A stretch of DNA of 38,280 nt from Folioceros fuciformis (GCA_049999805.1 JBNGIO010006370.1:204657-242936); one strand, 5' to 3'. Positions 3,836-27,935 are shown, counted from the stretch's first letter. Translations and numbers: made by a program. The notes: generated by a model not told the origin, from the sequence alone.

Positions 3836-4880
3836 GTTTCCACTGCTCCTGCGTTTGGGGGTATGTTAGTCTTCTCCTATACCAATGTTTGTATGCTCCC
3901 CTTCTTGCACCATGGTCGTAGTGTCTCCCTTGCTTCCGATATGAAATCAACTCCATGCATTAGAATAACTCTAAAAATATTATTCGACGTGCATTCACTA
4001 AATCCTTGAATCCTTTCATCCAACTCTGCTACATTCATCTGCTTGTCATACTCATGCCGCTGTAATCCTCGAGGCAAGTCTACAAATAGCAGCGTATAGT
4101 GGCGTTTGACAACAAAGGCCTTCATTTCTAGAATATTCTTGTAAATAACTTGATATTTCACCTTTTCGTTACTCGCCAGAACTCAAAAGTCTAATAAGCT
4201 TGCGTTGATATCAGTGGCCGCCAGCTTTTGCTTCTCTTCTTCCATTCTTTTCCAGTTTTTTGCCGAATATACAAAATCCTGGAATGGCTTCGACAATGAC
4301 TCCAAGTCTGTTATATCTCCAGGTTTCTGCAACCAGAATAGTACTCGTTAGTGTGCCTACCAATAAGGCTACTTAAACCTTAGCAGGCAGGAATGCGCCG
4401 GTCTACCAGCGCACTGGGGTCCCAGCCGGTAGAAGTGCGCCGGTCTACTAGCACACTAGAGCCCTAGCCGGCTGCTCCAGTGCACCGGTCTACCGGCGCA
4501 GTGGAGCCCGAGCCGGTGGGAGTGCGCCAGTCTACCGGCGCACTGGAGCCCAAGCCAGCGGGAGTGCGCCGGTCTACCGGCGCCCTGGGGTTAGACTCAG
4601 CTCCAGTGTGCCGATTTACCAACACATGAGGCCCGAACAGGCTGGAGTGCGCCGGTCTACCGGCGCACTCTAGCATCATATTACTCGGTTTAGCCTCCAT
4701 CTTCTGTACCCAGTCCGGATCGTGAGGATCTCCACCTTCATCAGTCATACCTAGCAACCTGCAAAGGTTAAACTTCCACTTCACTGGCGGCTTCTCATCC
4801 ACTGAATGAGTCCGAAAGAAAATATCTAGCTCGTCATGAATGTATCATACCTGCTCAATGAACCCCATCCTCATCCTTTC
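3836..4880 (-). pseudogene. Disrupted transposon-associated gene with N4/N6 DNA methyltransferase-like motifs (two exons, probable intron ~4328-4690)
   Basis: After a TTGCAG acceptor at 4328 one frame reads KPGDITD...LLDF*VLASNEKVKYQVIYKNILEM...HYTLLFVDLPRGLQRHEYDK...FRVILMHG...SIQTLV*EKTNIPP. The stops are single transitions from CGA/TGG. DLPxG..(W/Y)D and WxKxN resemble beta-class amino-MTase motifs. Upstream exon ~4690-4880. Confidence 0.45.
4393..4670. repeat. Array of 7 ~42-bp units, each with the palindrome GTGCGCCGGT-CT-ACCGGCGCAC
   Basis: Copies at ~4393, 4435, 4480, 4522, 4564, 4606, 4645; perfect 12-bp arms at 4645-4670. Confidence 0.92.
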
Positions 4881-5060
4881 GGATGCTGAGCCTGGGCTTT
4901 GGGTTGTTACTGAAGTATGATCGTATAGATCATCGGATGCTGAGCTTGGCCTTTGGGTTGTTACTGAAGTATGATCGTATAGATCATCGGATGCTGAGCC
5001 TGGGCTTTGGGTTGTTACTGAAGTATGATCGTATAGATCATCGGATGCTGAGCCTGGGCT
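4879..5060. repeat. 54-bp tandem repeat, 3.3 copies, abutting a PBS
   Basis: Unit GGATGCTGAGCCTGGGCTTTGGGTTGTTACTGAAGTATGATCGTATAGATCATC at 4881, 4935, 4989, 5043 (partial). Confidence 0.95.
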
Positions 5061-5122
5061 CTGATACCATGTGAACTCTCGTAGCATAGACTACATGCAT
5101 CTATGCAGGCATGACCAGAAGT

Positions 5123-5399
5123 GTGCTTTACATTACTATGAGAATAAGAGAAAGTTAGAAAAGTATGTAGATCAGGGGTCCTTTTATAGGAGCCCGGGTA
5201 CCCCTTCATAGGGGTGCTTTACATTACTATGAGAATAAGAGAAAGTTAGAAAAGTATGCAGATCAGGGGTCCTTTTATAGGAGCCCGGGTACCCCTTTAT
5301 AGGGGTGCTTTACATTACTATGAGAATAAGAGAAAGTTAGAAAAGTATGTAGATCAGGGGTCCTTTTATAGGAGCCCGGGTACCCCTTCATAGGGGTGC
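5123..5399. repeat. 91-bp tandem triplication inside the LTR
   Basis: Units start at 5123, 5214, 5305; each ends in the hairpin-like ACCCCTT(C/T)ATAGGGGT. Confidence 0.95.
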
Positions 5400-5480
5400 G
5401 ACTATTCGCTTAACGAGCTAGGGTTAGCCTAACTCTCCTGACTATTGGCTAGGGTTATGTGACTCTTACTAATCTTAACA

Positions 5481-8400
5481 AGCCCTTAAAAACCTTCAAC
5501 TCTGCAAGATGCGAGATGGTGACTCAGTAGAAAAGCACATTGCTACCTTCGGACATCTTGTTTCTAAGTTGGAGGGAACAACTCAGGAAGCCATCAAGGA
5601 AGATATGTTAGCACTCTATTTGATGCTTTCATTACCTGCCTCCTGGTCGAATTTTGACTTCGTACAACACCTCACAGGCACAAGCTCAAAAACTGGCGTC
5701 TGCTGCCAGGATTAAGCTGCCTCCCATGACCTTTTCTGAGTTAGTGGGAGCACTTCTTCAAGAAGAGGCCACAAGAGGTGGGCCTAAGGATGGGAAACAG
5801 CAAGCACTCTACACCTCAAACAAGGGCAGAGGAAACAAACCATACCCTCGAGGCAAAAATACTACACCTGTTGTAGGAAGCTCACAAGGAGTTCCCTCAC
5901 AAAAGAAACCCAAAAAGACCGGGAAATGCAACTGGTGCAAAATTCCCGGCCATTGGGAAAATGAGTGTCGTAAGAAGCAGGCTAGCATACCTCGCAAGGA
6001 GGGCAATGCGAATGCTGAAACACACGTCGTAGTAAAGAAGCAATCCTCTCCTTCTGCCCTGACAGTAAGGGTAAGGGAGTTTGCTCAACCTCTAGTCCTT
6101 CCCACATGTTTATCTGCTATAGCAGAGTCTAAACCAATTCAAGAATGGTACTTAGACACAGGCGCAACAGCGCACATCTGCTTTGATAGAAGGGCCTTCG
6201 CAAACTACAGACAAGTAAAGGATCAGTTTGTCTATTTAGGTGATGATAGGGCATTGGTATCTCCAGGAAAGGGCACAATGTTCCTTCCTATCCCCTCGGG
6301 GCTAAAACTGTCCTTTACCAATGTTTATTATGTGCCTGGAATGACCAGGAACCTCATTTCTGTCAGGCAACTAAACATAGACAACAATAGTCACATTCTG
6401 TTTACCCCCACAGAGTGCCAGATCCTAGATGCTTTTGATCATCGCAAGGTCTTAGCATATGGATCCTCTGACCACGATCTCTTTTGCCTTCACTTGCACA
6501 GTATTCTTGTGCAGTCTCATTTGACGTCACAAGGTGACCTATCACCTTCACATCAAATAGACAAAGCCATATTATGGCACAATAGGTTAGGTCATCCTCA
6601 TGGAGCTAAGCTACAAAAACTGGCTACCAGTGATCTATATTATGATGGAAAGATTGGCACTCTTCCCACCTTACCCCTGTGTGAAGCTTGTGTGTTGTCT
6701 AAGTGTCACTAAGCAGCCTTCAAAAACAGGACTCCACATAGAGCTTCTGATGTTCTTGAGTTAGTCCACACTGATATATGTGGGCCATTATCACAGCCTT
6801 CAATAGGTGGTGGCAAGTACTTCTTAACCTTCACTGATGACAAGACAAGGTTTGTCATGGCTTATATCTTGAAGGCCAAAAGTGAAGCCTTCTCTCAATG
6901 CAAAACTTACTTAAAATTTGTTGAGAGATGGACAGGACAATAGCTCAAGACTCTCCGCTCGGATAACGGAGGAGAATTCACATCTAACGAATTTCAAACC
7001 TATTGTGCAGAGGAGGGTACTGGGCGACAGCTCACCGTTGTGTACATGCCACAGCAAAATGGCGTTGCAGAACGCCTGAATTTGACTTTACAGGAGATGG
7101 TTTCCTCCTTGCTCCATCAAGCTACCTTACCATTTCCCTATTGGGCTAAGGCCCTAATGACAGCTGTTTATCTAAGAAATAGATTCGTAGGTCAAACACC
7201 ATATGAGGCTTTTTTGGCAGGAAACCGTCTATCTTTCATCTTCGAACCTTTGGCTGTGTTGCTTATGCCTTCATTCCAAAGGAGAACCGAAAGAAGCTAC
7301 CTGCAAAAGGCAAAAAACTCCTCATGATAGGTTACACTGAGGGCATAAAAGCTTATAAACTTTATGATGTCCCTCAAAACAAGGTGATCTATGCACGAAG
7401 TGTTACCTTTGCCGAAGGACGTGTTTGGACATCAGTGGGAGCACCTCCCACCTCCCATGATAATGCTGAACTTGATCTGTCTGTTCTCCCCAACGTCACT
7501 TTCTTTGCTGACTCAACACCTGAGGAGATTGCTCCTGTAGGGGGGGATGAGCATAATCAAGACGAGCATGACAATCAAGTTGAGCATGACAATCAAGTTG
7601 ACATAGCAAAGGACGATGCCTTTGCTGATCTTGATGAACAGCAGCAGCAATCTCCCATTGCTGTTGAGCTACAACCTGAACCAGACATACCCGATCTTAG
7701 TGACGATGAAGTCGCAGATGATGCAGCTGTTGTCCGGGATAGTGATGATGATGCTGATGTAGTTGAACTACCTGTACGTCGATACCCTGCAAGAGAAAGT
7801 CGTGCACCTGATTATTATCAGTCACATAATTTCATGACAAGTTCAGCACGTGCTCATGCTATTAGTCTGGACTCGATAGAGCCTCGTACTTATGAAGAAG
7901 CCATGAGTAGGCCAGATGCTGCAGAGTGGAAAAAGGCCGTTCAGTCTGAGTATGATAGCCTGATCAAGAATGGCACTTGGGAACTCGCAAAGTTACATCC
8001 TGGACGCAAAATGGTGTCCTGCAAATGGATATTTAAGCTCAAGGTTAAAGCAGATGGTACCTTTGACAGGTACAAAGCTAGACTCATTGCTTGAGGCTTT
8101 TCCCAAGTACCAGGTCTGGATTATCTGGAAACTTATGCTCCTGTCGTGAAGCTAGCCACGTTTTGTGTTCTCTGCGCAGTAGCAGCACACCATGACTATG
8201 AGTTGGAAATGTTTGACGTTGAAACAGCTTTCTTACATGGCAAGCTGGATACTAAAAATAAAATAAAATAAAAAAATTATATGCAGCAACCGATGGGCTA
8301 CATAGTAAAGGGAAAAGGGGACATGTCCTTTGCCTAATCAAAACCCTATATGGCTTAAAACAATCTGCTCTTGAATGCAATGTAGTTTTAGATGAGGAGC

Positions 8401-9486
8401 TGCAAGCTCTAGGCTTCATCAAATATGTTTTAGACAGTAGCCTGTATGTTTACAGGGCTGGAGACACTGTATGTTACCTAGCTGTGTACGTGAATGACTT
8501 GATACTCGCATGTAACAGTCCCTCCTTTATCGCAAAAATTAATGGCCTCCTATCCAAGAAGTTTGAGATGTCAAACTTAGGAGCTTTACAAAGCTGCCTT
8601 GGCATACATATTTAAAGAGATCGAAAGAAGAGTTTTAATTGTCACTCAACCAAGATACCTTCTTGATAGCGTAGACCAGCTTGGACTCAAGGACGCGAAG
8701 CCTGCAGTCACACCATTACCAAGTGGACTTAAGCTGAGTAAATCCATGAGCCCACAACCACAATCTGAAAAGGACAAAATGCTTCCTATCCCTTACCGCA
8801 AGGCAGTAGGAAAGCTTATATATGCAGCAAACGCTACTCGTCCTGAAGTGGCAAATTCCACAAGTGTGCTTTCACAATACTTGGAAAACCCTGCACAGGA
8901 GCACTGGACTTGTGTTAAAAGAGTATTTCGATACTTAAAGGGAATAGCGCAGTATGGAATTGTTTACAAATACAAACCTGATGCTGCTCTTGAATTAGAC
9001 GTATATACCGATTCAGAATATGCTGGTGATATAGACAGTAGAAGATCAGTCTCTGGATACATCGTCATGTTTGCTAGAGGACCAATCTGTTGGTCTAGCA
9101 AGAAGCAACCAATTGTTGCCCTCTCAAGCACAGAAGCAGAATATCGTGTCCTCACATCCGCTTCTAAAGACGTTGCTTGGTGCAAACTACTCTTCAGTGA
9201 ACTTGGACTACCTCTACCTACCTACACAGTGATTAAAATAGATAGTCAGGGATCTATAAACCTGGCAAAAAACCTTGTTCATCACTCAAGGACAAAACAC
9301 GTTAAGGTAGAATATCACTTTATCAGAGATTTGATCAAGAGTGGACAGGTTGTACTCGAGTATGTGCCAACAACATAAAACCCAGCAGACATTATGACAA
9401 AAGCCCTAGGTAGGGAGCTGCACGAGAGGCACATGAAATGTCTTAGAATGGGGAAGCCAAGTGACTTCCTCAGTCTTGCAGTTTAA
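5481..9486 (+). pseudogene. copia gag-pol polyprotein with multiple stops/frameshifts
   Basis: ORF pieces 5509..5715, 5654..6712, 7040..7327, 7324..8094, 8599..9378 in GAG-PR-INT-RT-RH order; (AAAAT)n insertion at ~8254-8277. Confidence 0.92.
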
Positions 9487-9495
9487 AGTCCCAAA

Positions 9496-10528
9496 CTACC
9501 AGTCATATCCCCAGTATACGCTGCCTTCATCCACATTATGAACAAGCACACTTGCATGACTGCCAAAAGAATCAGGCTCAGAGGAATCAGAATCATGTTC
9601 AGAGGGAGTGGTAAAGCTCTCATCCGATCTTGGAGAGTTTCTCTTCCTACGCTCCATGTAGGAGATTCTCTCCTCAGTCTCTAGGCTATGCTCTTCCTCC
9701 AGCCGCAATTCAGATCTTGCAGGGCAAGTGGGAGCTTGTTGGAGAATTGTAAGAAGAAGGCAATGGGGATACTGACATAAAAGTAGACAGGGCACACTTA
9801 CTGTAAAAGCTGACAATATGATGCTGATACTCACGATAGTGCTCTATCCTTACTCGTACCATCTTCAGGTTTGTGTAAGAGCACTTATACCACAGAGGGG
9901 TACAAGGAATAGCAAAAGAACTAAGGCTCACAATCTTGGTTTCTTCATCAGAGTGTGTCGGAACTGGAAATCTCATCAACACAGCAGGCCTATGGTCAGA
10001 ATCAGCATACGCGAACTCACCAGCTTTGAAGCAGAGCTTGTCACTATGATCGCTCCAAAGAGGCTTCTCTTTAGGGGTAGCCGTCTTACGGGGAGCTGTC
10101 TTACACGCAGCGCCAACCTTTGTCTTACAGTATGAAGCATCTGACGAGCGCCGCTGATCAAGATAAGCCTTGGTGGTGCCGCGTAGTCTTCCTCGCGAAC
10201 GCCTCCCGCTGCTGTCACCTTGAGGAGCAGGAGCAGGCATCTTTGTTGATCCTTGCTGCTGAGAGGAGGCAGCTGTTCTAGTCAACTTGCTCACAAACCG
10301 CCCTAGCTTGTCGTGATGGCAAACGCGGCGCTTTGCAGGAGGGGAGTCACTGGCTGAGGACAACATCTTGAGATCAGAGATCCTACGCCCCAATAGCTTA
10401 CAAATAAAGGACTTGAAGCGAGGAGGGATGCTATAAGGGTCAGACACACCTATTACCCAAGTTTGTACAGATACGCTCCGTCGCGTTCCTTTAAAGGCAA
10501 AGGTGTCGGCGCAACCCAGTACATGCAC
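9496..10528 (-). CDS. Antisense ORF(s) (272 aa + overlapping 112 aa) in the copia 3' region, unknown function, AT-hook-like motif
   Basis: ORFs 9710..10528 and 9496..9834 fill the space between the RNase H stop and the PPT; motifs PPAKRR and RRSRGRLRG. Confidence 0.4.
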
Positions 10529-10635
10529 ACTGCGAAGCTTTCAGCTCAGCTCTCAGTCTTACACTCGACCCATGTTAGAGAAGGCGAAGAGGAGACGTCC
10601 GAATCATCATAATCCAACAAGTGGGAGTGAAGGAG

Positions 10636-10848
10636 TATTGATGTTGGCATAATGAGATTAGCGTTATATTATATCCAGTTTCATATAGTGTGTATAGACT
10701 TAACATATCTTATTTCTTCGCTAGGGTTACGACTGTTAGTAATAGTCACACCCATTCATAAATAGTTAAGTTCAAGTTTCAGTGTTAATGTGACTCTCTC
10801 TTATATACATATACACAATATTATTTTTATAATAAATCTACATCTACA
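10636..10848 (+). repeat. Probable 3' LTR of the plus-strand copia
   Basis: Follows purine tract AAGTGGGAGTGAAGGAG; TATTGA (degenerate TGTTGA)...CTACA; partner LTR absent. Confidence 0.65.
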
Positions 10849-11340
10849 TGTAATTTCTTATTTATCCTACGCCAACCTCTCAAACCTCTCAGTATCAGTT
10901 TCCATTGCTCGAGTGGGCTCTGGCTCCACATGCTGCACTGCACCGCCCTTCCTTCTCATTTGCCTCGCTGCCTGCCCCCTTGCTGCAGAGCCTACTGGTT
11001 TTCTTCGCTTTTTCTGCGGAGATGTTGTTGTGGAGACATACAAACGTTGTTTTCAACGGTGTCAGTAGTCAGAGCTTTCCCAAAGGATTATATCTACCAA
11101 AAACACCCCCAAAGCGGTCAGCTCTGCATACAAGTAACAGCGTGGGAATTCAACTCTCCCACTTGAGTTATCCTTTCTTCCTCTAGCGGTCCGGGCATTG
11201 GGAGAAGCCTCTTCGCCAGCGGGTGGTGGAGGTCGATGTCCATCTCTTTCAGTGTAGTGACGAGACAACTCTCGCGCAAATCATTTCCCGACTTGCCTTT
11301 GCTTTCGTAATCGGGGAAGTGCCTGAACATCCTTGTCCAC
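10849..11340 (-). pseudogene. Possible 5' part of the transposon's second (divergent) gene
   Basis: Coding-like segments MFRHFPDYESK...EEERITQ and SPQKKRRKPVG...ETDTERFERLA (NLS-like), cut by the LTR at 10848; no recognisable domain. Confidence 0.3.
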
Positions 11341-11545
11341 AAGCAATAGTTTGTTGCTCCGATGACCAGCTGCCATTGCTGTGCAACCAAAAATATGGAG
11401 AGTTGAAAAGCACGTAGTCTTTTCTGGAGAAGGAAGATGTTGTAGACGAAGTGCCCATGCAGCGGATTTATGCAAGACAGAATTCGAAAAGTCACTGTGC
11501 AACTCAAAAAAGAATATCCAAAGTAGCCGACCGCCAATGCATTTA

Positions 11546-11705
11546 TAGCATGATCAAGGTCATATCAGGCGGCGATTCTCGCTGAACAGCTAGTTCTATT
11601 TTGGCTCAAACGTTCAAATTGAATTAGCGTGATCAAGGTCGTATCAAGTGGCGATTCTCGCGGAATAGCTAGTTCTATTTTTGCTCTAACGTTCACATTG
11701 CATTA
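11546..11705. repeat. 79-bp tandem duplication between the divergent transposon genes
   Basis: TAGC(A/G)TGATCAAGGTC...GGCGATTCTCGC...AGCTAGTTCTATTTT at 11546 and 11625. Confidence 0.9.
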
Positions 11706-11810
11706 AACACCTGCGCTTTGGGACTTGGTTGCGAGGCTTTGTTACAACGCTGCAAATTTGAAGCAAGTCTAGCCGAAGTTCATACTCAACATACTTTCTT
11801 TTCTGCTTCC

Positions 11811-14068
11811 ATGGCCAACAAACCTTTATCATCATGTCGCGGTGATGAGAAGGTCTGTGATGATATCAGCGATGAAGGTTTGGAAGAACGAACGTTGCGT
11901 TGCGTTTATGGTTTCAAATGAATTTGATTTGCTTATTTATTACTAATGCGTGGATGATTCTTATCTCCAGGAGACCATCCTTGCAGACATCAATCTGATG
12001 AGTTGAGGTTGTCGCCAATCCGACTAAGTCTTCTGAACGAAGTTCATAGTTGTCCAAGCCCGTCACCTCACGACAACCATTTGTAGGCGCAGTGATGAAA
12101 ACGACACCTCTAAGGGGAAACGCTGATGTCTATAGGTTCTCCGGAGGGAGTGGCACATATGGTTGGGGCCTAGAATGCGAATGAAGAGGGGCCTTGCTGT
12201 CAGGAGTGTTAAGGCTCAAGACAAACACCAAGCCAGCGGTCGAGCTTTAATCGCTAGCCGGCGTCGGAATCCATGATTGAAACTCCCTTAGATCATCGAT
12301 GAGGTCGGCGAAAGAGATCTTCAACAATACTAGAGGCTAAGTGTTCAGAGCTTCGCACTTCTCTTGATTATAGGAAGATATGTTGTGCGAGACAATGTCT
12401 GAGATTGCTTGGTAAACCAGGATTTAGAGAGTTGTGATACTGTTTTCTGAAGATGAGCAGGATAGAACAAGAAACCTTTTTGCAGGCACATTTTGACATC
12501 GATAAGATTGAGAACGCACATGCAATCGCGTAACCATTCTTAATCGGGTCGGGAAAAATAAGGTGTTGTCGAGATGCTTTCAAAAGAGTGTATTGTATTG
12601 GTTCAAATAGATATGAGGGAGTGAAAGATCGAGCTTGTGGGAACATTTTTTGGTCTGGAGCTATCCGCTCAGAGCCACCGACTCTAGGCTATGCCGCGTG
12701 CGTATGGATGGATCAATTGTTTCTCCNNNNNNNNNNNNNNNNNNNNNNNNNNNNNNNNNNNNNNNNNNNNNNNNNNNNNNNNNNNNNNNNNNNNNNNNNN
12801 NNNNNNNNNNNNNNNNNNNNNNNNNNGCTTAGAGCCACGGACTGTAGGCTACGCCGCTGCTGCGTGCGTATGGATGGATCAATTGTTTCTCCTTATTATG
12901 GAGTGTATGCCAAATGTTGAAGTGTATCATTTGCTAGACTCGTACATAAAGAAGGAAATTTTCATGGACTACAAGTGGCAAATGAGCAGAGCAGAACAAT
13001 ACAACATTTTGTACTCCTACTTTTGTCAGCTATGGGCCTCGCACTTCCCAAAAGTGCACATTCCAAAAACCAACAGATTTTCCTTGTGTTCTATGTGCGA
13101 TTATCTGAAGAGAAACATTCGCTCTGAATCAAATAAACAAAAACAAGGTACAAATTAGTTTTTTTGGTTTATGATACTTAACTAAATAATGTTTGTTGAA
13201 CATGTTCGTATTCCGATGCTCTATACCTTGACATAGGGAGTGCACCGGTATACTGGCGCACTCCAGCCGAGTCAGGACAAGAGCGCCGGTCAACCGGCAC
13301 ACTTTTTCAGGTGCATGAGAAGTGTGTTGGTAGACTGACGCACTTCTCATGATTCAGATGGATTGCGCCTGTATATCGACGCGCGACTCAGGAGTCTGCT
13401 AGAGTGCACCGATATATTGGCTCACTCTTGCAGTCAAATGTGAGTGTATGCTGATATAAATTGGTGGGCGGTCTGTGGGTGGTATTCGTCCATGACAGAA
13501 GGTTTCGAAAGCGACTTAAAAGTACATCGACAAAGACTAAAGGCGTAGCGAGAGAAGAGTATCAAGCATTGTGTAAAATGCTATGGTGATCTGGCTAAAT
13601 ACCTTGGGTTGTCCATAGATGGTATGGATCAGCAAAAAACTCAAATTCCTCATTTTGTGCGACTTCCAAAGGACTTGGGGGTTTTTACTAGTGGGCCACA
13701 CTCACAACCAGGTGGACCAGGTGTTCTCTCGGTTTTCAATGGCTCTGGGAAGGAAAGAGGCTCTCAATTTACCTGCACTCATTGCTGTTATGCAGAATGC
13801 TCATACACCAACGCCAGCAGTGCATGAAGTGAAGGATGTGCCAGACTTCCGGTGATTTGTGTGGCCTACACCTTACAAGAAAGCTGGTTATTAGAATATA
13901 TCAACTGTTCACCCGTTGCACAATATTTCATTCCAACACTAGTTCAAGATCACAAGGGAGAGATGAGGAGAATGGGGCTTTAAAACAGTGATGCGAGGGA
14001 AGTAGTATTGTACAGATGAATATTGGTCACTAGATGAGGGTATCGAGTTTCTCAAGCATATTCCGGAC
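11811..14068 (+). pseudogene. Sola-like/DUF7869 transposase, 5' part (intron 13148-13498; internal deletion near 13678)
   Basis: CCARQC...CCRDAFKRVYCIG; ECMPN..YHL..K..F.QLW..HFPKVHIPK..RF..CSMC. After the GT-AG intron the frame continues to LSIDGMDQQKTQIPHF, then FLLVGHTHNQVDQVFSRFS. Start position uncertain; 100-N gap at 12727-12826. Confidence 0.8.
13239..13428. repeat. Degenerate ~41-bp-spaced array of the same GTGCGCCGGT..ACCGGCGCAC palindrome inside the transposase intron
   Basis: AGTGCACCGGTATACTGGCGCACT (~13239), AGCGCCGGTCAACCGGCACAC (~13282) and three more degenerate copies to ~13428. Confidence 0.75.
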
Positions 14069-14285
14069 TGAGAACAATGTGATTAGGGAGCATAGCAATT
14101 CTCAGAGCAATTCTCTTATGTATTTGCAGTTGAATAATAAAAAGTATCTTTCTACATCAAGGCATCTGCCTTAAATAGTAGTTATCTTGTCTACCCGACT
14201 TGCCCTATATATTCACACCGTTTTGTCTGAGTTTACCCTATATATTCGTCTAAGTATAATTAGGAACGCTATATATGCTCTAACA
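14069..14285 (-). repeat. 3' LTR of the minus-strand copia
   Basis: Direct repeat of 26129-26345. Confidence 0.96.
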
Positions 14286-14958
14286 CCCCGTCTTAAACCA
14301 CACGCTAACGGCCTTAGGTTTAGGGCAATCGCCGCCGTACTCGAAATGACCTGGGTGTAGGGAAGGCATTGATTCATTCTTCGAGTGCGGGGCTGAGAGT
14401 GCTCAGCAGCGGGCGGAAGTGCTTGTGCGCCATCTTCGTGGATCCGACTTGCAGGCAGTTGTAGGCGAGGTTGTGGGTGGTGACTTGCGGCTATATGGCG
14501 CCTATGGTGTGCGGCTGGTACTGTAGGGTGGCGCCAAGGCAGCGTAGTCACTACTTAGCAAGAGTTGTCTTGTGGGCATCTGCCTTTCGGAGCTAGTGGG
14601 TCGCGATCGTGAAGGTCGATGTGAGGCGCGCAGTGTTGTAGTGCCTGTGTGGGTGTGCTCAGGCTATGATGTAGTTCCTTCCCTCGCAAACTTGTGGACT
14701 GCGGCCTGAGAGGCCTTGCTGATGTATACTTGAGCCGACTGTATCGGCGCTACAGCTTCATCCTTCTAGTAGGTGGATGGTTGTGCTGGTGTTTTGCTTG
14801 TCCCCTAGCTTCTTATGGCCTGATGGTGTTTTTCTTACGCAGCTAGTGGGAGCCAGGGTTGCGTTGCCTTGGCCGGTGAGAGGGTGGCGAGTGTGTTCAG
14901 TGCAAGAGCCGACCAGTGGGGGGCGTCTCAAGCTTCCCCCTCTCAGCAGCCCTATCCT

Positions 14959-15926: not shown

Positions 15927-15933
15927 AAACATT

Positions 15934-17657: not shown

Positions 17658-17659
17658 CT

Positions 17660-18752
17660 TGTTGTGGTCGTTTGTGGCAAGCATCAAGTGCTGTGCATAC
17701 GTGTGGAGTGATTTCTTGCACCCAAGAACCACCCAAGGGGCCACACATTCCCCTATTGTCATTGCAGTCCTATGGTTCGCTCCCAAGAGAGTGAACTAGT
17801 GCCAAGGAACACTACCTATCACACTTCTACCTATCAGCCGGTCTATAGGTCTGTCCATACACTCACAACAAAAAGGCTAGAAGCCTAGCCTACCCCCTAA
17901 GTCAGCTCGCCCAACTCACACTCCTGTTCTTCAGTCCTTCAGCTCTTCTTGGTTCCCACTTCAGCCACTTTCTCCTTCACCTCAGCTCTTCAAGCTTCCC
18001 ACTTCAGTCCCTTCCTCTTCACTTCAGTCCTCCACCCTCCACTTCAACACACACTCCTGCACTTCAGCAGCTCACTCTTCACTTCTATGCATTTCACCCC
18101 AACTCTTCCTTTCTTTTCTTCAGCTTCCCCCTCCTGGAAATTAGGACACAATGGCTTCACTTCTTGCAGCCTCCAAGCATAATGTGGATCTAGGACTGGA
18201 TAGCCCTCCAGCTCACAGTCCTATTCCTTCACTTCAGCCAACCTGCGAATCATGTAGCCCTTGCGGATCCGGCCACAAGGATCTTGACAGCCCCGGGATC
18301 CCCACGTTCCCCTAGTGGCAAGGGGAATCAGGACTTTGGGTCGACCTCAACCGGCTCAGCGCCCTAAGCCAGGAGTTCTACCCACAAAGTCCGGGGACAT
18401 CACGCCATAGACCGCCCTCTCTCAATGGCGGCCTCTCCTCTTGTACCCCAACCCTCATCTCTCTCTCTAACTTAAACCATCCTACATCCGGTTCTGACCT
18501 AAACCTAACCTAGGTCTGACCTAAACCTAATCTAAGCCTGACCTAGACTTGATCCAGGCCTGACCTAGACCTGATCCAGGCCTGACCTAGACCTGATCTA
18601 GGCCTGACCTAGACCTAATTCTGATCGCAGCCTAACCAAAGCCTAACTCTAACCTACTCTTGCTTCTAATTGCCCATTGCCCCTTGACACCGTTAGCTGC
18701 CCACAATTATCAACCCCTCACATCTAGCAAAAATCAGGGGTGCCTCTCAACA
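17660..18752 (-). mobile_element. Probable ~1.1-kb LTR (3' LTR of a minus-strand element) with adjacent PPT
   Basis: TGTTG...CAACA termini; TCCCTCTCCCCTCCC at 18753-18767 is a polypurine tract on the minus strand; no second copy in the window. Confidence 0.55.
18495..18620. repeat. 22-bp (2x11) degenerate tandem repeat
   Basis: CCTGACCTAGACCTGATCCAGG-type units, about 5-6 copies. Confidence 0.85.
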
Positions 18753-18767
18753 TCCCTCTCCCCTCCC

Positions 18768-21700
18768 GAGTTAGATCATCTCCCCTCTTTTGATTACCCT
18801 GCCTTCTTCCCCAGAGTCTCCCGCCTTTAGGTCCTTCCCTCCTGGCCACGGCTGGCCAAGACTCCTGGCCCTAGGCTAGGCCTTCGGCCTACAAGCAACC
18901 AGGGTTGCTACTCATGGATGGAAAGCCGAGTGTCACTTATGTCCTTAGCGGACCACCCTCCAAGCTGCTGGACTGATGCCCTTGAGCGGATAGCCCAGGG
19001 CGTCGCGTCCTGGCATGGCACACACCATCCATCATCGCCGCAAGTAGCATCCGGCCCTCCGCCTGCGGTAGCGAGTCAGTTCCAACCATCTAACCGCGGA
19101 TGGCAAGCCGTATGCAAATTACGGCCACTGGCTGCCATGGTACAGGGGGTGTACTACCCTTGCCTTCGATGCTTGGGTGGGGCAGCCCACGCCCTAAAAT
19201 TGCCTGGCAGTAGTCTACAACCAGTGTTCCAGTGTCAGGCTGTCATCCTTGGAGTGTCCCTCGGGACACTCCCCTGTCTTTCCCCTGGGCAGCCGCCTAT
19301 CGGCTATTAGGCCTACTGGCTATCCAACCAGCCATTTGGCCAGTCTTCGGCTGCTAGATCCGGTCGAGACCATTCTGTCCAACTCGAAGGAACGACCATA
19401 CAGAATCGTCGATGGGGTCAGTTGATCTGCACTGCACCTAGTTTGACCGGGATTTGGGATAAGCCGCTATCCTTGGTTTGCAGTGCACTGAGTGCAAGTC
19501 CGTCCGCGCCTGGTGCTCTCGGATCCAACCGCTTATCCTCAGCCATCGCCTGGATTCGGCCATCACGCCGTGACTCCCCTAGCCCTGCTTCCAGCCAAAC
19601 TGCAACTATCCCAGCTGCTCAGTCTCCAGCTGATCGGGACTGGATCCAGTCAGCTCGCCTAGTTGTCGAGTCGCCTGCCGTTTTCCTGATTCAGCTAGCT
19701 AGCCAGCCGACCAGACTCGACTGGCCAGCCTGCCTTAGCCTGGATCTGGCCAGGCGACCAGCCTGTAGGCCGCCTACTGCTCGCTTGCAATTGGAACGGG
19801 CTGGGTTGCTGGCCAGACTCCTCACCGCCAACTCCTCACCGCTATCTCCAACCAGCAACCCCCTTGTTCGGCCAGCCGTCACGGCTCATCTCGGTTGCTC
19901 ACGGCCGAGCATTCGCCTAGCTAAGACAGCTAGCCAGGAAGATAGCCCAACCCCCCTCAGATCCACTTTGTCCCGCTTGCCCAACCAGCTAGCCAGAGAC
20001 CCCTAGCTGCCAGGTCGCCGCCGGCTGGATACTCCTGCAGCCTGTCTTGGCTGCTGTCCATGGCTGCCTATCCTGCCAACCGGGCCGTTCTATGCACGCC
20101 AGCCAGGGTCCATCCTCCAGAGTCCCTGGCCCAGGGTCCCTGGCCCAGCAGTCCTCCGGCGGGGGATGCTTGCCAAGCCTTAAGGGTCTCCCCCACAATC
20201 CCGATTTCGGGCTCGCCTCCTTGTTGCCGGTCGTCGGCCGGACCGTCTGCCGAGACCTGGCTAGGCGACCATTCCCCCCCCGAGTCCGGTCTGCTCGGCT
20301 TGCCTACCTTCATCCTAATCTACTCCTGTGGTTTGGCCTGGCTTCTAAATCATCTGACCCCAGCCGGCCACCATCCCGGCCCCTCTTGGCTGTTTCTGGG
20401 CCGGGCGATCGGCTACCTAAGGCAGCCAACCAGGCCACTATGCTCAGCCGAGACCAGCCACGCCGCCTAGCATCTCGCTGTGAACCTACCCTGACCAGTT
20501 CCTACCAGCCAGATGGCATGCTTGCTCCTCTAGTTGTCGGGCCGCCCCAGCCAGTGGATCCGCACCCTGATCGGCCCCTGACAGCCTGGCTGCTGCTCAG
20601 CAGCTGGTCACTGCTAAGCCAGCCCCCCTGCTACTCGCCTTGCCAATCCAACTCGGCGCTCGCCATGCTCGGAGTGTCCTGCCGGTCAGGGTCTGGCCAA
20701 GCCTAGCTCAACCCTCCAAGCCTGCCGATCAATCTTGCCCGCCATCCGGTCACACGCCATCCACGGCCGCTGCTGCCCGTGGCCTAGCCAGCCTGCTGGC
20801 TGGCTAGATCCAGCTTGGAAGCCAGCCGGATTTAGTAAGCCCCCCTACCAACCGGTTCGTGTGCCTGGACTCGCCCGCTGGCCAGCCCGGCCTGGAACTA
20901 GCCAGGCAGCCTGCCCGCTTGCCCGACTCTCGTGGCCGTCGCCTACTTGCCCAGGCCAATTTGCTAGAGGCCGCTAGCTGGCCCCAGACCCAGCCAGGCA
21001 GGTTCGCCTGCCAGTCGCTTGCCCACCAGCCTGCCGCCAAGCTACACGGCTGCTACCTGGACGTCTGGCCGGAACCGCCTGCTTCTGGCCTGCCCGCTGG
21101 GTGGTTGGCGATCCAGCCAGCGCCTGTCTGACCCCATCGCGACCAGTCGCCATGACCAGACCCTTGCCCAGCCGATCAACTAGTTGCTTGGTTGGATCTG
21201 CCCTGGCTAGACCCCATACCACCCTGTCCCCGCTGCCGCTACGAGGCCGCCTTGCTACAGCGGCTGGTGGCCTGCAACCAGGCCAAGCTGCTTGCTTGCA
21301 GCCTGACCGAGTTGCCGTCTACGTGGTAGACCCCGTCGGGACCTTAGCCGGGCCCCGGCCTGCCAGAGCCGCGGCTTGCCGTGGCCAACTGGCCAGTGCC
21401 ACTAGCCGACCCCCGGCCTCCATATCCATCCCGGGAGCCAGCCACCAACCTTGGCCTCCCAGATTCCCTGCCGTCCAACCGGGCCGTCCAGGTTGTCTGG
21501 CTGGATTCCCTGCAGCCCATCCGCCAGCCAACCCTCCTACCAGCCTACTGCCAGTCGCTTGCCCAGAGGCCGCAAGCCAGCTCCTGCCTTCTAAATCCGG
21601 CCAGATCCAAGCCACCGCCCTGGATCCCGCCAGTCTGCTAATCTGGCCACTTGTGCTCTGGTGATCCCTATCCACCCGATGCACCAAGGCAGCGTCCCGA

Positions 21701-21986
21701 CACGTCCATCTCCGTCCCCAGCTTCCACTAGCAACAGCCGAAGGACCCCCAGCTCGCTTTCCACGACGTCCCAGGTTTCCTATTCCTCCGTTACCTTACC
21801 CCGAGGAACCAGAGCCCGTGTCCTATCTACCACACAACCTACCTACCCTATCGACTCACCATCAATCTAGCCATTATTCTAACCTAACCTTCCAACCTTT
21901 CCTCTACAACACTCACTCACAAATCCAAAAAAAAAGGAAAACCTATCATTTCCCAGGGGTCTGTTCAGCATGTGGAGTCCACAATA
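18768..21986. other. GC-rich, C-skewed non-coding segment of presumed retroelement origin
   Basis: Dense CCAGCC/GCCTG/GGATCC motifs, only low-complexity ORFs; ends where copia RT (QMDV) resumes. Confidence 0.45.
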
Positions 21987-24986
21987 CGTCCATTTGCTGG
22001 AGGTCCAGGTTGAATTCTGTAGCATAGGCAAGGATAAGGCGGATGGACTGGTTGCGAACTACGGCTAAGAACGTTTCTTGGTAGTCCAGCCCCTCCACCT
22101 AAGTGAACCCCCGAGCCACTAATCGTGCTTTGAATCTAGCAACTTCTCCCTTGGCATTTAGCTTAAGTTTGAATGTCCACTTGCAGGATATAGCCTTCCT
22201 ACCAGGTGGGAGGTCGACGAGGGTCCATGTATTATTCTTGACCAGAGATTTGTATTCGTCCTCAAGTGCTGATCGCCACTGCTCACACTCAGGGCTACTG
22301 AATGTCTGAGTGAGTGTGGTGGGTTCTGCAGGTAGGAGAGGGCCTGAGTTGAGCCCAGGAAAAGCATGTGTCTTGAAGTCAGTGGAGGCATAAGGTGGCT
22401 CCCTCCATTCAGATGGGGGAGGTCTATGGCGCGTGGAACAGCGCGGGGGGTCAGACCCAGGCGCAGACTCGGCAACCTGAGTTGGAGGCTCAAGGGGGTC
22501 AGCTGGCTCAGCTGCATCGTCAGCCATCCCCAGGTCAGCTGTCCCCAATTCCCCCTCTGCATCCAATATAGGTTGATGCGGGACTGCGGCGGGGGCTAAG
22601 GCAGTAGGATCAGCAGGGATGGCATCAGGTGGTGCTATAACAGGAGGGGGTGCTACCTATGCAGGTTCATCATCATCAGTGGGGAAAACGGAGGGTTGGT
22701 TGGCTGGCTGGATGGGATCCACTGAAGGGGGTTCCCCTAGAGCGGGGGAGCAGGGCTCTATGAAGGTGACACTCTTTGCGAGCACAATGCAGTTGGCGTT
22801 AGGGTTGTATAACTTACATGCCTTAGAGTGCTTGTTGTAGCCGACCAGAATGAGTGCCTTTGAGCGGTTGTCCAACTTGTGTCTTTTCTCTGCAGGGATG
22901 TGGGCATAAGCACCGGATCCGAAGACTCGGAGGTGCAAGAGACTGGGCTTCTTGTTCCAGAATACCTCAAAGGGAGTCTTGGTCGGAACAGTACTAGTGA
23001 TGACGCGATTGAGGATGTAGGTCGCCGCCACTATAGCCTCGGCCCAATAGCCCTTGCCGATAACAACATACTTCTTGTCATTGAGAGCAGAGTCTGATTC
23101 TTGCGTTCTGACACACCGTTCTGTTGCGATGTGTAGGGCACTGTAAGCTGGTGCAAGATTCCTGAGGTCTGCAGGAGATCATTAAAGGATGAATTGACGA
23201 ACTCGGTGCCATTGTCAGTTCTGAGGGTCTTCAAGAGCTATCCTGATTGCCTCTGGGCTATGGTGAGCTAGTCCTTGAAGCAGGTATAGGTGTCACTTTT
23301 CAGCTGCATGGGGTAGGTCCATGTGTAGCGGCTGTAGTCATCAGTGACTGTTAGGAAGTAACGAGCACCTCCAAGGGAGGGCTCATGAACTTTGCCTGAG
23401 ATGTTGGCATGGACTAACTCAAGGACTCGGGTGGCCCTCTGTGCAGGTGAATCAGGAAATGGTGACTCCTTCTGCTTAGCAAGGATGCAAGATTTGCACA
23501 CAGGTAACTCCTTGGAGCATTTAGGAAGAGGTTCTCGGTGGCACTTTAGGGCTGACATGTTAATCAATTTTGACCTATTAACATGCCCTAGACGAGCATG
23601 CCATAGCAGGGCCTGCTATGCCTAACTTAGGTTAGGACCTGTAGTTGAGTGGACGGCCTCTGTGTGCAGGTTTGGACTGAAACAGGTGATGTTAAGCCTA
23701 TACAAGTTGCTCTCAGGCAGTCCCTCAAAGGCACATGTGTGGGACATAGATGACGTCTGTCAGGGTTAGTTCAGTGCCATCATGAAGACAGAAGACACAG
23801 GTACCCTTGCCCTCAATACGCAGACTTGTCTTGCTCTGCTCATCTGCAAGAAATACCTAACCACCTTTTTGTGTTAGGTCAAGGTACTAAAAAGTTCCCT
23901 CTTCTTGCAGATATGGGTCGTTGCCCCAAAGTCGAGGTACTAGCAGCTGTCGTCACTGAGGGTGCTGGACAGGCAGACTGTTAGTATCGTCACGGGGGCC
24001 TTCGAGTCTCTCGATTTGTTCTGCCTCACAGCCACGTTTGCGGCCGACTTTTGCTGTCGTGAGGGCTCGCGAGCCCTTCCTTTTCGGCACTCTCTGGCCC
24101 AGTGGCCAGGGAGGCCACACCAGTTACAGTTGCCGGATCTCTTAACGGGGCTTGTAGGTTCCCCCCTCTGTCCCTACATTTCTGTACTTCTGGGTTGGGT
24201 TCTTCCCTTGCGGAAGTTTGTGGCTAATGCCTTCTCCCTTATTCCTGAAAGTAGATGAGAAGGCGCGACTTTGCTCCTCCTAGAATAGCGCTCCGATCTC
24301 CTCCAAGGTGATGGTCACTATCTGACCTGAGGCAGCTGCGGCAGCGCGTATCGGGCCATTTTGGTTCGTAACAAAGGTCTGGTAGGAGGCAGGAAGGCTG
24401 CTCAGTAGTTGGGCGGTAGCATCCACCTCTGACATCTTCTGTCCTGTCATCGCAATGAGCTGGGCACGTAGGTGCCGAAACTTGCTGACATGTGAGGACA
24501 CCTTTTCTCCTTCTTTCATTTTGAGGGAGAAGAATTCCTGCCTGACTGCACATAGCGTCATCATGTTCTGGATCTTGTATGTCTTTTCTAACTGGTCCCA
24601 TATGCCATGTGCAGATGTGAGGTACTCTACCTCTAGGACCGAGTCTGCGTCCAACCCTCGATAATCACGGCAACAGCAATAGCATTATGTTGTTCCCACT
24701 TGGCGATTTCATCGGCTGTAGGGCTAGCGTTGGGGTCAGGTTTGAGGTAGGTCCCGTCAACAACGGTCCAGACTCCCTTGGCCAGCAAGGTGGCCCTCAT
24801 CTTGACTCTCCACAAAGTGTAGCCAGACCCCTTGAACTTGTGATAGTCCTTCTCTTTAAGTTTTGAGGTGAAGGTAGGTGTGCTTGACGATGCTGCCATG
24901 GCTGGTTGTTGGGCTGGGGTGTTTAGGGTTAGGTGTTGGAGACCGCTAATAAGGGAGTTGAGTTGTGCAGGGGTGACCATGTACAC
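21987..24986 (-). pseudogene. copia gag-pol (GAG, PR, INT, RT N-terminus), degenerate
   Basis: gag (LWRVKMRATL, FFSLKMKEGEKV), knuckle CNWCGLPGHWAREC, YLDFGATTHIC, WHARLGHV, LRTDNGTEF, QQNGVSER, CKWTFKLK, FKARLVARGF, QMDV. Confidence 0.92.
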
Positions 24987-26128
24987 CTAAGCCGACCAGA
25001 GGAGCTATGGCTATAGTGGCACATGGAGGTAGGTGTGCACGTGACTCCTGCTATTGTGCTCTCATTCCCTTAGCAGCTGATGTTGGGACGTACGTGGCGG
25101 AGCCTAGCTAGGCACAGAGTTCGGATGCCATTGGGTTGATGGCTTCTAGGTCCTGCGCCTAGTTGAAGGCTTCGCCACTGACGCCTGCAGCATGGGTGCA
25201 CCTAAGGTGATGGGGAGCTAGCCCAGCCTGTTAGGCCCGGATGGGGAAATAATATTTATTGCTATTATTTCCGAAGGGGCTGGCCAAGGGGTAAGCCCTA
25301 GGATTTGAGTCTAGGTGGGCCGTTACTAACCATCATGTCCCAACGACGTGAAGAGGTTCACCAGGTGGCCAAATGGGGAGGCGTCGAGATCGATCTTGGT
25401 AAGGGGCGTGAGCAGCGTTGCACCGGTTCGTGCCTGGGGCGCTGAGCCTGCTCGTTCGCCAGAGTCTATGCTCCTTGGCAGCGGAAGTGTCTAGGGCCCA
25501 AGGCCGTCTGGTCCCGAATTGGTAAGTGAGTCCCCTGAATTCCGCCTCTGATGATCAAGGTTCTTGGGGTAATCTGCAACCCGGCAGATGCTCTCACAGA
25601 TTTTGTCAGTAGTGGGAGATTCGGGGATCTTAAATTCAGGGTCGGGGTGTTGGGCGTGGATTTTGGAGGAGGTCTGATACAACAGCAAACTGGACAGCAA
25701 TCCCTCCACGCGGCTGAGGATACTCTGCGACCTGACGAGAATTTTCCTCAGCCCCTTGTGTAGGTTGATGTCTATGTTGCACTAGTGCTTGCCAGGTGTT
25801 CCAGGTGCTAGCGAGGGCCCCCGAGTGTTAAACGGGTAGCGCGCTAGCGTGGATTGTTCGTAGGAACAGTGGGAGCCGGAGGCACGGCCGCGTTGCAGGG
25901 GGAGTTGCGGGCACTAGGGTGGAGAAACCTATCGCCAAGGGCGCCGGGCTCTTCCTCTTCTAGGGATGCGTGCACTTTCTAATGAGAGGTGAGCCGAGTG
26001 ATCAAGTGGGCAGCCTACGGTGACGAGTCCCTTTGCAGGCGCGCACTCAAATCTGCCCCTACTGAGAGCGCCCTGCCTCGGCATGATTCTAGGATTCCTC
26101 CGGGGGTTTGAGCATGGCTCTGATACCA

Positions 26129-26345
26129 TGAGAACAATGTGATTAGGGAGCATAGCAATTCTCAGAGCAATTCTCTTATGTATTTGCAGTTGAATAATAA
26201 AAAGTATCTTTCTACATCAAGGCATTTGACTTAAATAGTAGCTATCCTGTCTACCTGACTTGCCCTATATAGTCACACTGTTTCGTCTGAGTTTACCCTA
26301 TATATTCGTCTAAGTATAATTAGGAACGCTATATATGCTCTAACA
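26129..26345 (-). repeat. 5' LTR of the minus-strand copia
   Basis: Direct repeat of 14069-14285, adjacent to the PBS. Confidence 0.96.
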
Positions 26346-26350
26346 CGGAC

Positions 26351-27157
26351 ATAGATATCAAAGCTGCTCCATTTACACATTTACAATCCAGGAGCAAAAA
26401 ACAAAGGACAGTTCTGGACAATGTCGTTGAATATTATCTAGCACAAATCAGATCAAAACTAGAGCTGAGATTAGGACAATACTTAAGAGCAGGCGAGAAC
26501 TTGTGGTGGGATGGGTTTTGGGCAAAGCAAGAGGCTATCGTGCATTCAATCAACTCCGGTTTAGACAAAGACCTTGATTCTCCTTGACGGTGGTATAATC
26601 AAGAGGCAGCAGAATTATTGAACGCACTCATAACTGTTCCAGACGAAATCGTTGTTCACAATCCACGGATCCGTGAGATTCCCACAAGAAACATGTATGT
26701 GGGTGCATACCGTAGGGATGCAGACCTCAGTGACGACCGCGAAAGTTTGAATAGAGACATAACATAAATAGAAAAAGGGCATATGATTGTTGTCCCTTGC
26801 AAGTCTGACGAAGTCTTAGTGGCTGATATTACATGCGAAAAATCATATGTGAAAGTGCACTCGTGGGTCACCAAGTGTTCAGATGCTTTTGAGGGTCGTT
26901 ACCAAGAAGAGATGATTTTACCACATGAAGATCCGCCAAGAGGGTTACGAGAAGGTCACAGATGTAGGCCAAGCAGAAGACTTTGGAAGCATATAGATAC
27001 ATTATTCATTGAAGACACTTTCATTCTAGCATATGGATTTGATTTGACACGCCAAAAACAGCTTCCCTCCCGCACGAGGACCCTGATTCGCAAAAACCTA
27101 TACGTCCTAATCATGACCAGGATACACTGCCGCCTGAAAATAACGAAATTTTGTTAA
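26351..27157 (+). pseudogene. Sola-like transposase, 3' part
   Basis: Removing the copia and one TSD gives ...EFLKHIPD|IDIKAAPF...WWDGFW... in frame through ORF 26783..27157 (FDLTRQKQLP), with two in-frame stops. Confidence 0.75.
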
Positions 27158-27935
27158 ACGTTTAGATAAAAGTATTAAGTACAAACTGGTATGATAACTT
27201 TTGTATGTAGCGGCAAGCAAGTTTCGCTTTCCACTTGCCATATATGTGACTTTGGTAGTGTGCGCCGGTCTATCGGCGCACGTCAACTTGTTTTAGGCTG
27301 GTTGACCAACGGTCTATCCTGCAACCCTTTCTGGAAAATGCAAACAGACATCAACGGGTGATAATTTTCAAGAATAGGGTCAACTGATATGAGGTATAGC
27401 TCAAACACGCAGGACCTTACATGGAATCGGATAACACCTGAATTACATGATACCCGCCATATTACGGGGTTTTGTCATGTATTTGAATGCAAGGACACCC
27501 GCAAATTTGCTTATACTTTCAAAAAAATTGATGTTTACGTTCGTACGCAATACTCTTTAAGGCTACATTTATGCATCCCTAGACAAAAACGCATGAAAAT
27601 GTGGATATCTGACACGAATTTTGAGCATCAAATTTTCGCGAAGCCCGAAATGGCTTTAGAGAACAAGAACATCACGATGATGTGTTTGCACCTAGCAGAT
27701 TGGTAAACATGTATGCCGAGTATGCCGAGTGTGATAGCTTGTTACTATGTATGTGTGTTTGGAGAGAAAAATCTTAAACAAAAGAGAATTTTTATTATTA
27801 AAAGCACTAATACAATTCTACTTAAAATATTCTTTCTAAGATGTCTATTAACATATGTTATACCCCTTGGTCTTAGTCATCCTAATTGAAAACAAATCGT
27901 AAGCGAGTGTTGATTATATATATATTCTATAATTA

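Follow-up and report, generated by a model that had tools for sequence, protein, structure and literature searches.

Can a cut-and-paste transposon of a plant carry a homologue of bacterial-type DNA methyltransferases as a second gene beside its transposase? This question is raised by a stretch of 38,280 nucleotides from Folioceros fuciformis (GCA_049999805.1, JBNGIO010006370.1:204657-242936), here called the window at its full length, in which an earlier note made from the sequence alone saw a candidate two-gene, Sola-like element with a plus-strand transposase gene and a head-to-head minus-strand gene of the N4/N6 amino-methyltransferase type. Our analysis suggests that a two-gene transposon has left a dead copy in the span from 3836 to 27654, and that its accessory gene, a homologue of phage-type methyltransferases, would act on palindromes of the element itself, a reading to which we assign a probability of roughly 60%. 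It is the best reading of the evidence found inside the window, which is its whole basis. To us it appears rather probable that the transposon regularly includes the methyltransferase-like gene, which would then be neither a passenger nor a mere neighbour.

The methyltransferase-like exon

What is left of the accessory gene is the front half of a large 3' exon at 3862-4329 on the minus strand, delimited by phmmer, tblastn and alignment with relatives. Its frame begins behind ttgcag, which resembles a splice acceptor (around 4330), and continues to 3862 as KPGDITDL...HYTLLFVDLPRGLQRHEYDK...FRVILMH...QTLV*EKTNI, so that the minus-strand reading of the earlier note, with the peptides HYTLLFVDLPRGLQRHEYDK, FRVILMH and QTLV*EKTN, is confirmed by translation of the window. 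Interrupted in phase by a TGA at 4183-4185 and a TAG at 3877-3879, it otherwise forms one long frame. According to hhalign and the family alignment, DLPRG at 4066-4080 (minus strand) is the counterpart of the catalytic motif IV (DPPY), and V*EKTN at 3865-3882 (minus strand) is the counterpart of the WxKxN strand, with the TAG standing at a position that is W in all five family sequences covering WxKTN. The exon is truncated just past this motif, ahead of the half that binds S-adenosylmethionine (SAM).

A phmmer search with the exon found the relatives P0002 (E 2.7e-11) and P0004 (E 7.8e-10) over query residues 5-157. Conversely, tblastn of the family members matched the window only at 3862-4344 (E 3e-18 to 1e-10); the family homology ends on the left at 3862, and the SAM-binding half of the relatives has no tblastn match anywhere in the window. 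The gene had been described as cut at a junction at 3833/3836; the loss of the SAM half holds, the position does not, since homology stops at 3862. Family alignment and tblastn likewise bear out the exchange of the catalytic Tyr for Arg and the replacement of W by a stop, and with two premature stops and a truncation the copy is indeed dead.

An unnamed protein family with a permuted methyltransferase fold

Exhaustive phmmer searching of 1.84 billion cluster representatives returned nine proteins for the exon at E<=1e-3, six of which (P0002, P0003, P0004, P0006, P0008 and P0009) are true relatives with E values from 2.7e-11 to 6.4e-4; the best three cover the query from residue 5 to 142-157 and the others a shorter part. 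P0005, P0007 and P0010 were excluded as repetitive proteins matched over short stretches only. A second search with the family alignment, comprising 5.8 billion clusters, added a single new member, P0013, the other matches being bacterial enzymes at E values of about 1e-4. Every family member stems from raw-run assemblies and is unnamed, and none occurs in any named or annotated source, as expected for genes that are masked as repeats. A family known only from such assemblies is easily overlooked and invisible in annotated databases.

The relatives assign the fragment to a fold. All four members that possess the C-terminal half pass the Pfam family PF01555 (N6_N4_Mtase) with 30.0, 50.1, 47.3 and 39.7 bits (cut-off 26.7), while the four relatives without this half have no Pfam match; the window fragment joins the N6_N4_Mtase family solely through its homology to the relatives (E 2.7e-11). 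Compared with solved structures, the family profile matches M.RsrI best (6e-8), then the putative modification methylase TTHA0409 (1.3e-6), followed in this order by DpnA, MboIIA, M.BceJIV, CcrM and the rotifer N4C enzyme. When aligned by hhalign with a bacterial N6_N4 methylase, the profile reaches a probability of 97% and an E value of 9e-11 over 210 columns, pairing LMVVDLPRGL with LIFADPPYFL, VWIKTN with TWVKPN, YQKP with TQKP and DMCSGSGTG with DPFMGSGTT. The mapping of the catalytic loop and of WxKxN proposed in the earlier note is thereby upheld. The permuted order of the motifs is evident in P0004 (DLPRG at 98, WEKIN at 168, YQKP at 245, GSGS at 272) and alike in P0006 and P0009; the window holds the first two of these motifs only.

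A model of P0009 calculated by AlphaFold from an alignment of eight rows is of moderate confidence overall (predicted local distance difference test, pLDDT, 62.5; predicted template modelling score 0.67), with core blocks at 70-90. Foldseek relates it to CcrM, M1.HpyAVI, MboIIA, M.BceJIV, M.RsrI, PvuII and rotifer N4CMT with E values from 1e-12 (CcrM) to 1e-7, and comparison with M.BceJIV by VIA gives a Z score of 17.7 and a root mean square deviation of 5.6 for 205 aligned residues (model residues 11-259). The top 20 rows of the VIA comparison are all beta-class amino-methyltransferases or type III Mod proteins, and MT-A70 attains a Z score of only about 11. The closest ESM Atlas clusters all belong to PF01555 and are mostly from phages. 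The methyltransferase-fold reading is thus supported by Pfam, by the family profile, by the motifs aligned in hhalign and by the P0009 model, and with the Pfam scores of the relatives, the profile matches and the Z score of 17.7 the assignment to the beta-class (permuted) N6_N4 fold is borne out. The profile and structure comparison suggested in the earlier note succeeds for the full-length relatives, which are predicted to have the fold of beta-class amino-methyltransferases, and fails with Pfam for the fragment as such. Judged by its homology, the fragment is almost certainly a true member of this methyltransferase-fold family.

Catalytic loop and SAM-side motifs

The tetrapeptide (D/S/N)PP(Y/F/W), which forms the catalytic motif of active enzymes, is found neither in the window nor in the family. 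DPPY is the signature of N6-adenine and SPPY/TSPPY that of N4-cytosine methyltransferases (PMC8885841; bioRxiv 10.1101/2021.02.12.428880; here and below, statements cited from the literature refer to the portions of these papers available to us). DLPRG takes this place in the window, P0002, P0003, P0004, P0006, P0009 and P0012, and DIPYG in P0008. Counted over the family sequences that cover the motif, DLPR replaces DPPY in six of seven, corresponding to five of six clusters at 90% identity (P0002 and P0012 form one cluster). The SAM-side motifs YQKP, DxCSGSG[ST] and AVD[VI]DP are kept in all four sequences that reach them. The earlier note had suggested looking for DPPY or DLPY and FxGxG in other copies: the loop is DLPR in most relatives and DIPY in P0008, and a SAM motif of the form GSG[ST] is indeed present. 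Across eight sequences with identities of 25-55%, nine columns do not vary, among them L, D, P and G of xLxxxDxPxG.

This pattern suggests that the family protein is under constraint and probably binds SAM, with the base-stacking step altered or lost. Given the DLPR loop, membership is one of fold and homology, and enzymatic activity would be putative. It is conceivable that methyl transfer persists in intact members, though on the sequences at hand we would sooner bet against it.

Gene structure of the relatives

In P0012 (418 residues), an N-terminal region of about 200 residues is joined directly to the methyltransferase exon (RVRSVGNL...). P0011 and P0002, which belong to the same 90% cluster and each reside on a contig of 16,193 bp, probably one and the same, break at exactly this junction; P0018 also stops there, and the window exon starts there behind ttgcag. 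The break point shared by P0011, P0002 and P0018 as opposed to the continuous P0012 points to a conserved intron. The additional N-terminal region of the relatives is all-helical, comprises about 200-280 residues and has no Pfam family above cut-off, no solved relative and no ESM Atlas match; its AlphaFold model is unusable (pLDDT 45). We presumed a ParB-like motif in this region, an impression that found no support.

Upstream of the methyltransferase exon, tblastn reveals an exon-like frame with one stop at 4650-4889 (minus strand) that weakly resembles residues 52-125 of P0018. In the 570-bp upstream search space the match has an E value of 0.017, and its score of 45 is reached by 1 of 2000 shuffles (mean 26.6, standard deviation 4.3). 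If real, the match places an array of palindromes, described below, inside the gene. Further upstream exons were sought beyond the retroelement that follows, at 10.7-12.4 kb, where the best E values of 0.57 and 0.49 are not significant. Residues 107-124 of P0018 also show a non-significant similarity (E 0.33) to the C-terminal transposase frame KKQRTVLDNVVEYYLAQI at 26396-26449 (plus strand).

The transposase gene and the nested retroelements

The gene on the plus strand is a decayed transposase of the DUF7869 type, real as claimed earlier. Its 5' two thirds, recognised by Pfam and by their frames, occupy 12300-14068, and its 3' third lies at 26347-27157, where the frames continue once a long terminal repeat (LTR) element has been excised. 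The DUF7869 domain at 13619-13855 scores 55.8 bits against a cut-off of 26 (E 5.8e-15). From about 12300 onwards, Cys-rich N-terminal pieces are followed by SIDGMDQQKTQIPHF and VGHTHNQVDQVF, interrupted by frameshifts and a gap of 100 N, and an intron-like stretch at 13150-13540 holds the two palindromes at 13242-13300. Longer relatives of the transposase core were looked for among 33 candidates, none of them significant, and the transposase family is therefore not placeable. The label Sola would derive from the DUF7869 match alone, and a literature search on DUF7869 gave no link to Sola. A 79-bp direct repeat (87%) is situated between the two divergent genes at 11546-11703.

The element that splits the transposase gene is a copia-type LTR retrotransposon at 14069-26346 (minus strand; LTR pair and RVT_2). 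Its LTRs of 218 bp (14069-14286 and 26129-26346) are 96% alike, have TG..CA ends and are flanked by a perfect 5-bp duplication, CGGAC; removing the element rejoins the transposase frame as KHIPD|IDIKAAPF. This second of the two nested LTR elements described earlier is thereby confirmed. For the first, put at 4879-10848, copia-type coding frames for gag, integrase and reverse transcriptase (Pol_BBD, gag_pre-integrs) are present between the two genes at 5479-9378 (plus strand), and blastn found no LTR pair. The likeness of other genomic copies sets in at 5481 and is lost at about 10700-10860. With no LTR pair and with contig ends as the only other guide, its borders are uncertain (about 4890 or 5481 to about 10700-10860). 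Within the second LTR element, the region 18800-21800 has a G+C content of 54-65% and a strong negative GC skew; both strands hold long open frames in several phases, and one frame that was tested has no Pfam match.

Shared palindromes and the ends of the family

The palindrome that the earlier note had reported from both genes is real and ties them to one repeat family. Searched as the 18-mer GCGCCGGTCTACCGGCGC with up to three mismatches, it yields 20 strand-matches at 11 sites, where 100 shuffles lead to an expectation of 0; in its full form it measures 24 bp, with 11-bp arms AGTGCGCCGGT and ACCGGCGCACT around a CT centre. Six sites are located at 4395-4666, two at 13242-13300, two at 16332-16382 and one at 27262. 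The first six belong to an array at 4390-4670 that has a period of 42 bp at 4390-4588 (4.7 copies); as it separates the methyltransferase exon from the exon-like frame upstream of it, it is probably intronic. The palindrome contains the 7-mer GTCTACC, with which the terminal inverted repeat of the family also starts.

This terminal repeat is known from a non-autonomous derivative of 1736 bp at 15926-17661, inserted in the LTR element and recognised by its inverted repeats and an empty site. The repeats are 24 bp long (GTCTAMCCCARACGGGCGGATTCC, at 15934-15957 and 17634-17657) and 22 of the 24 positions are paired. TTGT flanks the derivative on both sides (15922-15925 and 17662-17665), and an empty-site joint 15920->17661, present in one contig each of the two DNA runs X1 and X2 that derive from other copies of the retroelement, skips 15921-17660, i.e. 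1740 bp or 1736 + 4. When these 1740 bp are taken out, the copia frame becomes continuous again (...LMLATNDHNLLAEVKTKLHKRFDMKDIG). The skipped length and the TTGT flanks together define an element at 15926-17661 with a target site duplication of 4 bp, observed on the derivative only; alternatively, the duplication may be one of 5 bp with one mismatch. The left arm of the derivative is the reverse complement of 27058-27654 (86-93%), holds two palindromes and has the C-terminal peptide of the transposase in common with the main copy.

The derivative qualifies as a Pack-type element, as its terminal repeats and target duplication enclose a fragment of a host gene. This fragment of 567 bp at 16594-17160 stems from a leucine-rich repeat (LRR) kinase (LRR_8/LRR_1 frames at 16620-17087) and is 92% like (45 differing letters) a host-like contig in run X4, which is RNA by guess only. 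The derivative thus defines the ends of the family and shows that the family captures pieces of host genes. In the main copy, the corresponding right subterminal arm is recognised by its likeness to the arm of the derivative at 27058-27656 (plus strand), with one palindrome at 27262-27279; it ends about 24-32 bp short of the terminus, and the missing part includes the inverted repeat. On the other side, next to the truncated exon, a 10-mer at 3852-3861 resembles the terminal repeat (5 matches in the window, 1.8 expected). It was rejected as a terminus, as it is not above chance and one of its matches lies in a lectin-kinase paralogue and has no further likeness.

One transposon with two genes?

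The two genes are divergently arranged, the methyltransferase-like gene on the minus and the DUF7869 transposase gene on the plus strand, with a nested retroelement between them. Contigs covering them were counted in X1 and X2, two runs under one organism label in which 0.60 and 0.56 of the words sampled from 3840-4878 are present; contigs were matched at 80% likeness, and their counts were used because depth is not copy number. The methyltransferase exon is covered by 14 (X1) and 19 (X2) contigs at 3924 and by 9 and 8 at 4013, the transposase by 12 and 12 at 12952 and by 14 and 17 at 13500. Both are multicopy to a similar degree, which, like the shared palindromes, supports the two-gene element indirectly. 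Among the runs listed as containing words of 3840-4878 there is no RNA run, and the listed pieces of run X4 lie on the LRR fragment, the retroelement and the lectin-kinase, none on the methyltransferase exon. Run X3 differs from X1 and X2, which are of the same sample, in an excess of C>T (672) and G>A (655) over other kinds of change (23-194) across 3740-17700; a conversion-type library, or data of another kind, may lie behind this.

In the reading that we prefer, the family would consist of a gene for a DUF7869-type DDE transposase and a divergent accessory gene for a circularly permuted amino-methyltransferase homologue of bacterial or phage type, of which the window copy retains just the catalytic-loop half with its two stops, parted from the transposase by the nested copia-like element. 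In the mechanism that we propose, the accessory protein would bind SAM, recognise the element's own 24-bp palindromes and, by marking or occupying them, help to assemble or protect the transposon ends. In the same vein, the TnpA protein of En/Spm binds subterminal repeats. A more far-reaching version, in which intact members are active enzymes that write N6-methyladenine (6mA) or N4-methylcytosine (4mC) on the phased, CCGG/GCGC-rich palindromes by means of the DLPR loop, seems quite improbable from the sequences.

A number of observations weigh against the two-gene reading. The main copy has a terminal inverted repeat at neither end, the 24-bp repeat being confined to the derivative, so that the claim of a main element bounded by such repeats is not borne out and a pair of ends shared by the two genes cannot be shown from the window. 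The nest around the main copy is rearranged and has two gaps in the assembly, and the transposon family picks up host gene pieces, as the LRR fragment illustrates. Joints 4671->13435 and 4573->17270 occur in contigs; they are ambiguous because the palindrome arrays resemble each other and were not used as linkage, and no joint that removes the first retroelement is among those listed. With the whole window as search space, the similarity of 4650-4889 to P0018 is weak (E 2.9), and about 175 residues that the relatives possess between this upstream part and the methyltransferase exon are absent from the window. The exon fragment matches no Pfam family, whether its stops are read as W or its frames are taken separately. 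A metagenome scan with two loci and a viral scan with three, matched only at residues 231-317 (the SAM half) at 26-35% identity, produced ordinary phage or bacterial enzymes, which were rejected as family members. Moreover, we know of no active beta-class enzyme with Arg at the catalytic aromatic position, and the binding of palindromes is purely something that we infer.

How, then, could the arrangement have come about otherwise? A host gene, or a piece of one, could have been picked up by the transposon lineage through transduplication and have no role in transposition. The derivative with its LRR-kinase fragment keeps this a live rival. Of the gene itself the window has only a truncated pseudogene, and host genes could be among the family members, given that P0012 resembles a spliced transcript. 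We nevertheless regard a captured passenger as unlikely: each run has the methyltransferase exon on 8-19 different contigs, palindromes of the family lie between the exon-like parts of the gene, no member turned up in a named or annotated source among 5.8 billion clusters, and the fragment keeps one long frame with two stops only. The gene could also belong to another element or to the host and have come to lie beside the transposase by chance, the arrays being separate insertions of small derivatives. The lack of terminal repeats bounding the span would fit this idea, as would a nest that comprises at least four elements and is interrupted by runs of N, and a left border at 3862 that abuts a lectin-kinase remnant. 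It is rendered improbable by the array at 4390-4670, which has no terminal repeats of its own and sits exactly between two parts resembling one gene family, and by a divergent pair of genes that only a nested retroelement separates.

The remaining alternative would deny the relationship altogether and take hhhhD-L-P-R-G for a chance look-alike, for instance of HWxLhhhD in Ulp1/CE-clan proteins. Such a protease reading of the exon was dropped after full-length, methyltransferase-like relatives had been found. The fragment alone finds no Pfam match and, compared with solved structures, hits nothing but a CE-clan deubiquitinase (E 0.18); against this stand relatives that pass Pfam N6_N4_Mtase, with profile, fold and motif alignment in agreement. 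Pfam, hhalign and the model match refute the look-alike unless the homology between fragment and family (E 2.7e-11) is spurious, and we give it a negligible chance. A dead copy of a transposon with a transposase gene and a methyltransferase-like accessory gene remains the best reading.

Comparison with known systems

The family shares its predicted fold and SAM-pocket motifs with beta-class N6_N4 enzymes such as M.RsrI, CcrM, M.BceJIV, MboIIA, M1.HpyAVI/DpnA and M.PvuII, and also the order of motifs, i.e. catalytic loop, WxKxN, a short middle part, xQKP, FxGxG and an acidic strand end. It differs from these enzymes in having DLPR instead of DPPY/SPPY, introns, eukaryotic genes and an extra N-terminal region, and outside the SAM half the similarity is too low for plain searches. 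Use of bacterial beta-class enzymes by eukaryotes is, to our knowledge, proven only for host genes of rotifers and Marchantia. N4CMT of bdelloid rotifers and MpDN4MT1a/b of Marchantia resemble the present family as permuted, bacterial-type amino-methyltransferases in a eukaryotic genome, and the rotifer structure 8s9m matches the P0009 model with a Z score of 15.7. Those enzymes are host genes with intact SPPY/TSPPY and proven 4mC activity (PMC8885841; bioRxiv 10.1101/2021.02.12.428880), and N4CMT carries a chromodomain (PMC8885841), whereas the present family has DLPR, lies beside a transposase, is multicopy and is known from sequence alone.

Proteins of methyltransferase fold are also encoded by other mobile elements. 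In DIRS1 retrotransposons, the methyltransferase domain is derived from PCIF1 and inactive, with catalytic residues substituted and substrate-binding residues lost (PMC4738411), while Mariner elements of giant viruses carry enzymes of the restriction-modification type (C5 or Methyltransf_26) paired with endonucleases (PMC3627910). DIRS1 is similar to the present family in its substituted catalytic residues as well; neither is a cut-and-paste element of a plant with an enzyme of the beta-class N6_N4 type. Our literature searches, with supplementary files outside their scope, turned up no cut-and-paste transposon of a plant for which a beta-class N6_N4 homologue had been described, and land plants are reported to have few amino-methyltransferases (PMC4738411). 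The view expressed in the earlier note that Sola elements are mainly known for encoding a transposase only needs correction, as Sola2 elements with Fanzor1 as a second gene and a target duplication of 4 bp have already been described (PMC3627910). These are similar in possessing a second, non-transposase gene, and the 4-bp TTGT duplication of our derivative agrees with Sola2; in the present case, in contrast, the second gene is a methyltransferase homologue and the candidate pair resides in a copy without terminal repeats.

Should the two-gene reading be true, DNA-modifying proteins of phage or bacterial type would have a new means of entering eukaryotic genomes and spreading in them, namely a DNA transposon of a plant, and the accessory protein would be a candidate transposon-encoded factor that reads or writes marks on the element's own ends. 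If it even methylated these ends, the marks would shield them from silencing by plant 5-methylcytosine or license them for the transposase, and the element would be a self-methylating cut-and-paste transposon, the first of its kind in a eukaryote.

Genomic setting

The window is plant nuclear DNA, with an intact gene for an L-type lectin receptor kinase at 29791-31971 on the minus strand (Lectin_legB and Pkinase, 726 residues in a single frame). A second lectin domain is located at 519-1211 and a remnant consisting of the membrane and kinase part only at 2980-3780, and the lectin receptor kinases at 519-3780 and 29791-31971 (minus strand) are tandem paralogues. The likeness of the remnant to the intact kinase gene ends at about 3728, at a gap of 10 N followed by short repeats, and the transposon nest at 3836-27654 occupies the place expected for the lectin half of the remnant. 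Runs of N mark assembly gaps at 3729-3738 (10 N) and 12728-12826 (100 N).

Elsewhere in the window, a pogo/Tc5-like DNA transposon at 33078-35829 encodes DDE_1 (33538-34398) and HTH_Tnp_Tc5 (34399-35121) on the minus strand and is edged by 111-bp inverted repeats that are 86% alike (33078-33188 and 35719-35829). A further copia-type element begins at 37133-38279 on the plus strand (Retrotran_gag_2, DUF4219) and runs past the end of the window. Short tandem arrays are found within 1-212 (31-bp unit), at 28319-28924 (40-bp and about 55-bp units) and at 32353-32785 (44-bp and 33-bp units).

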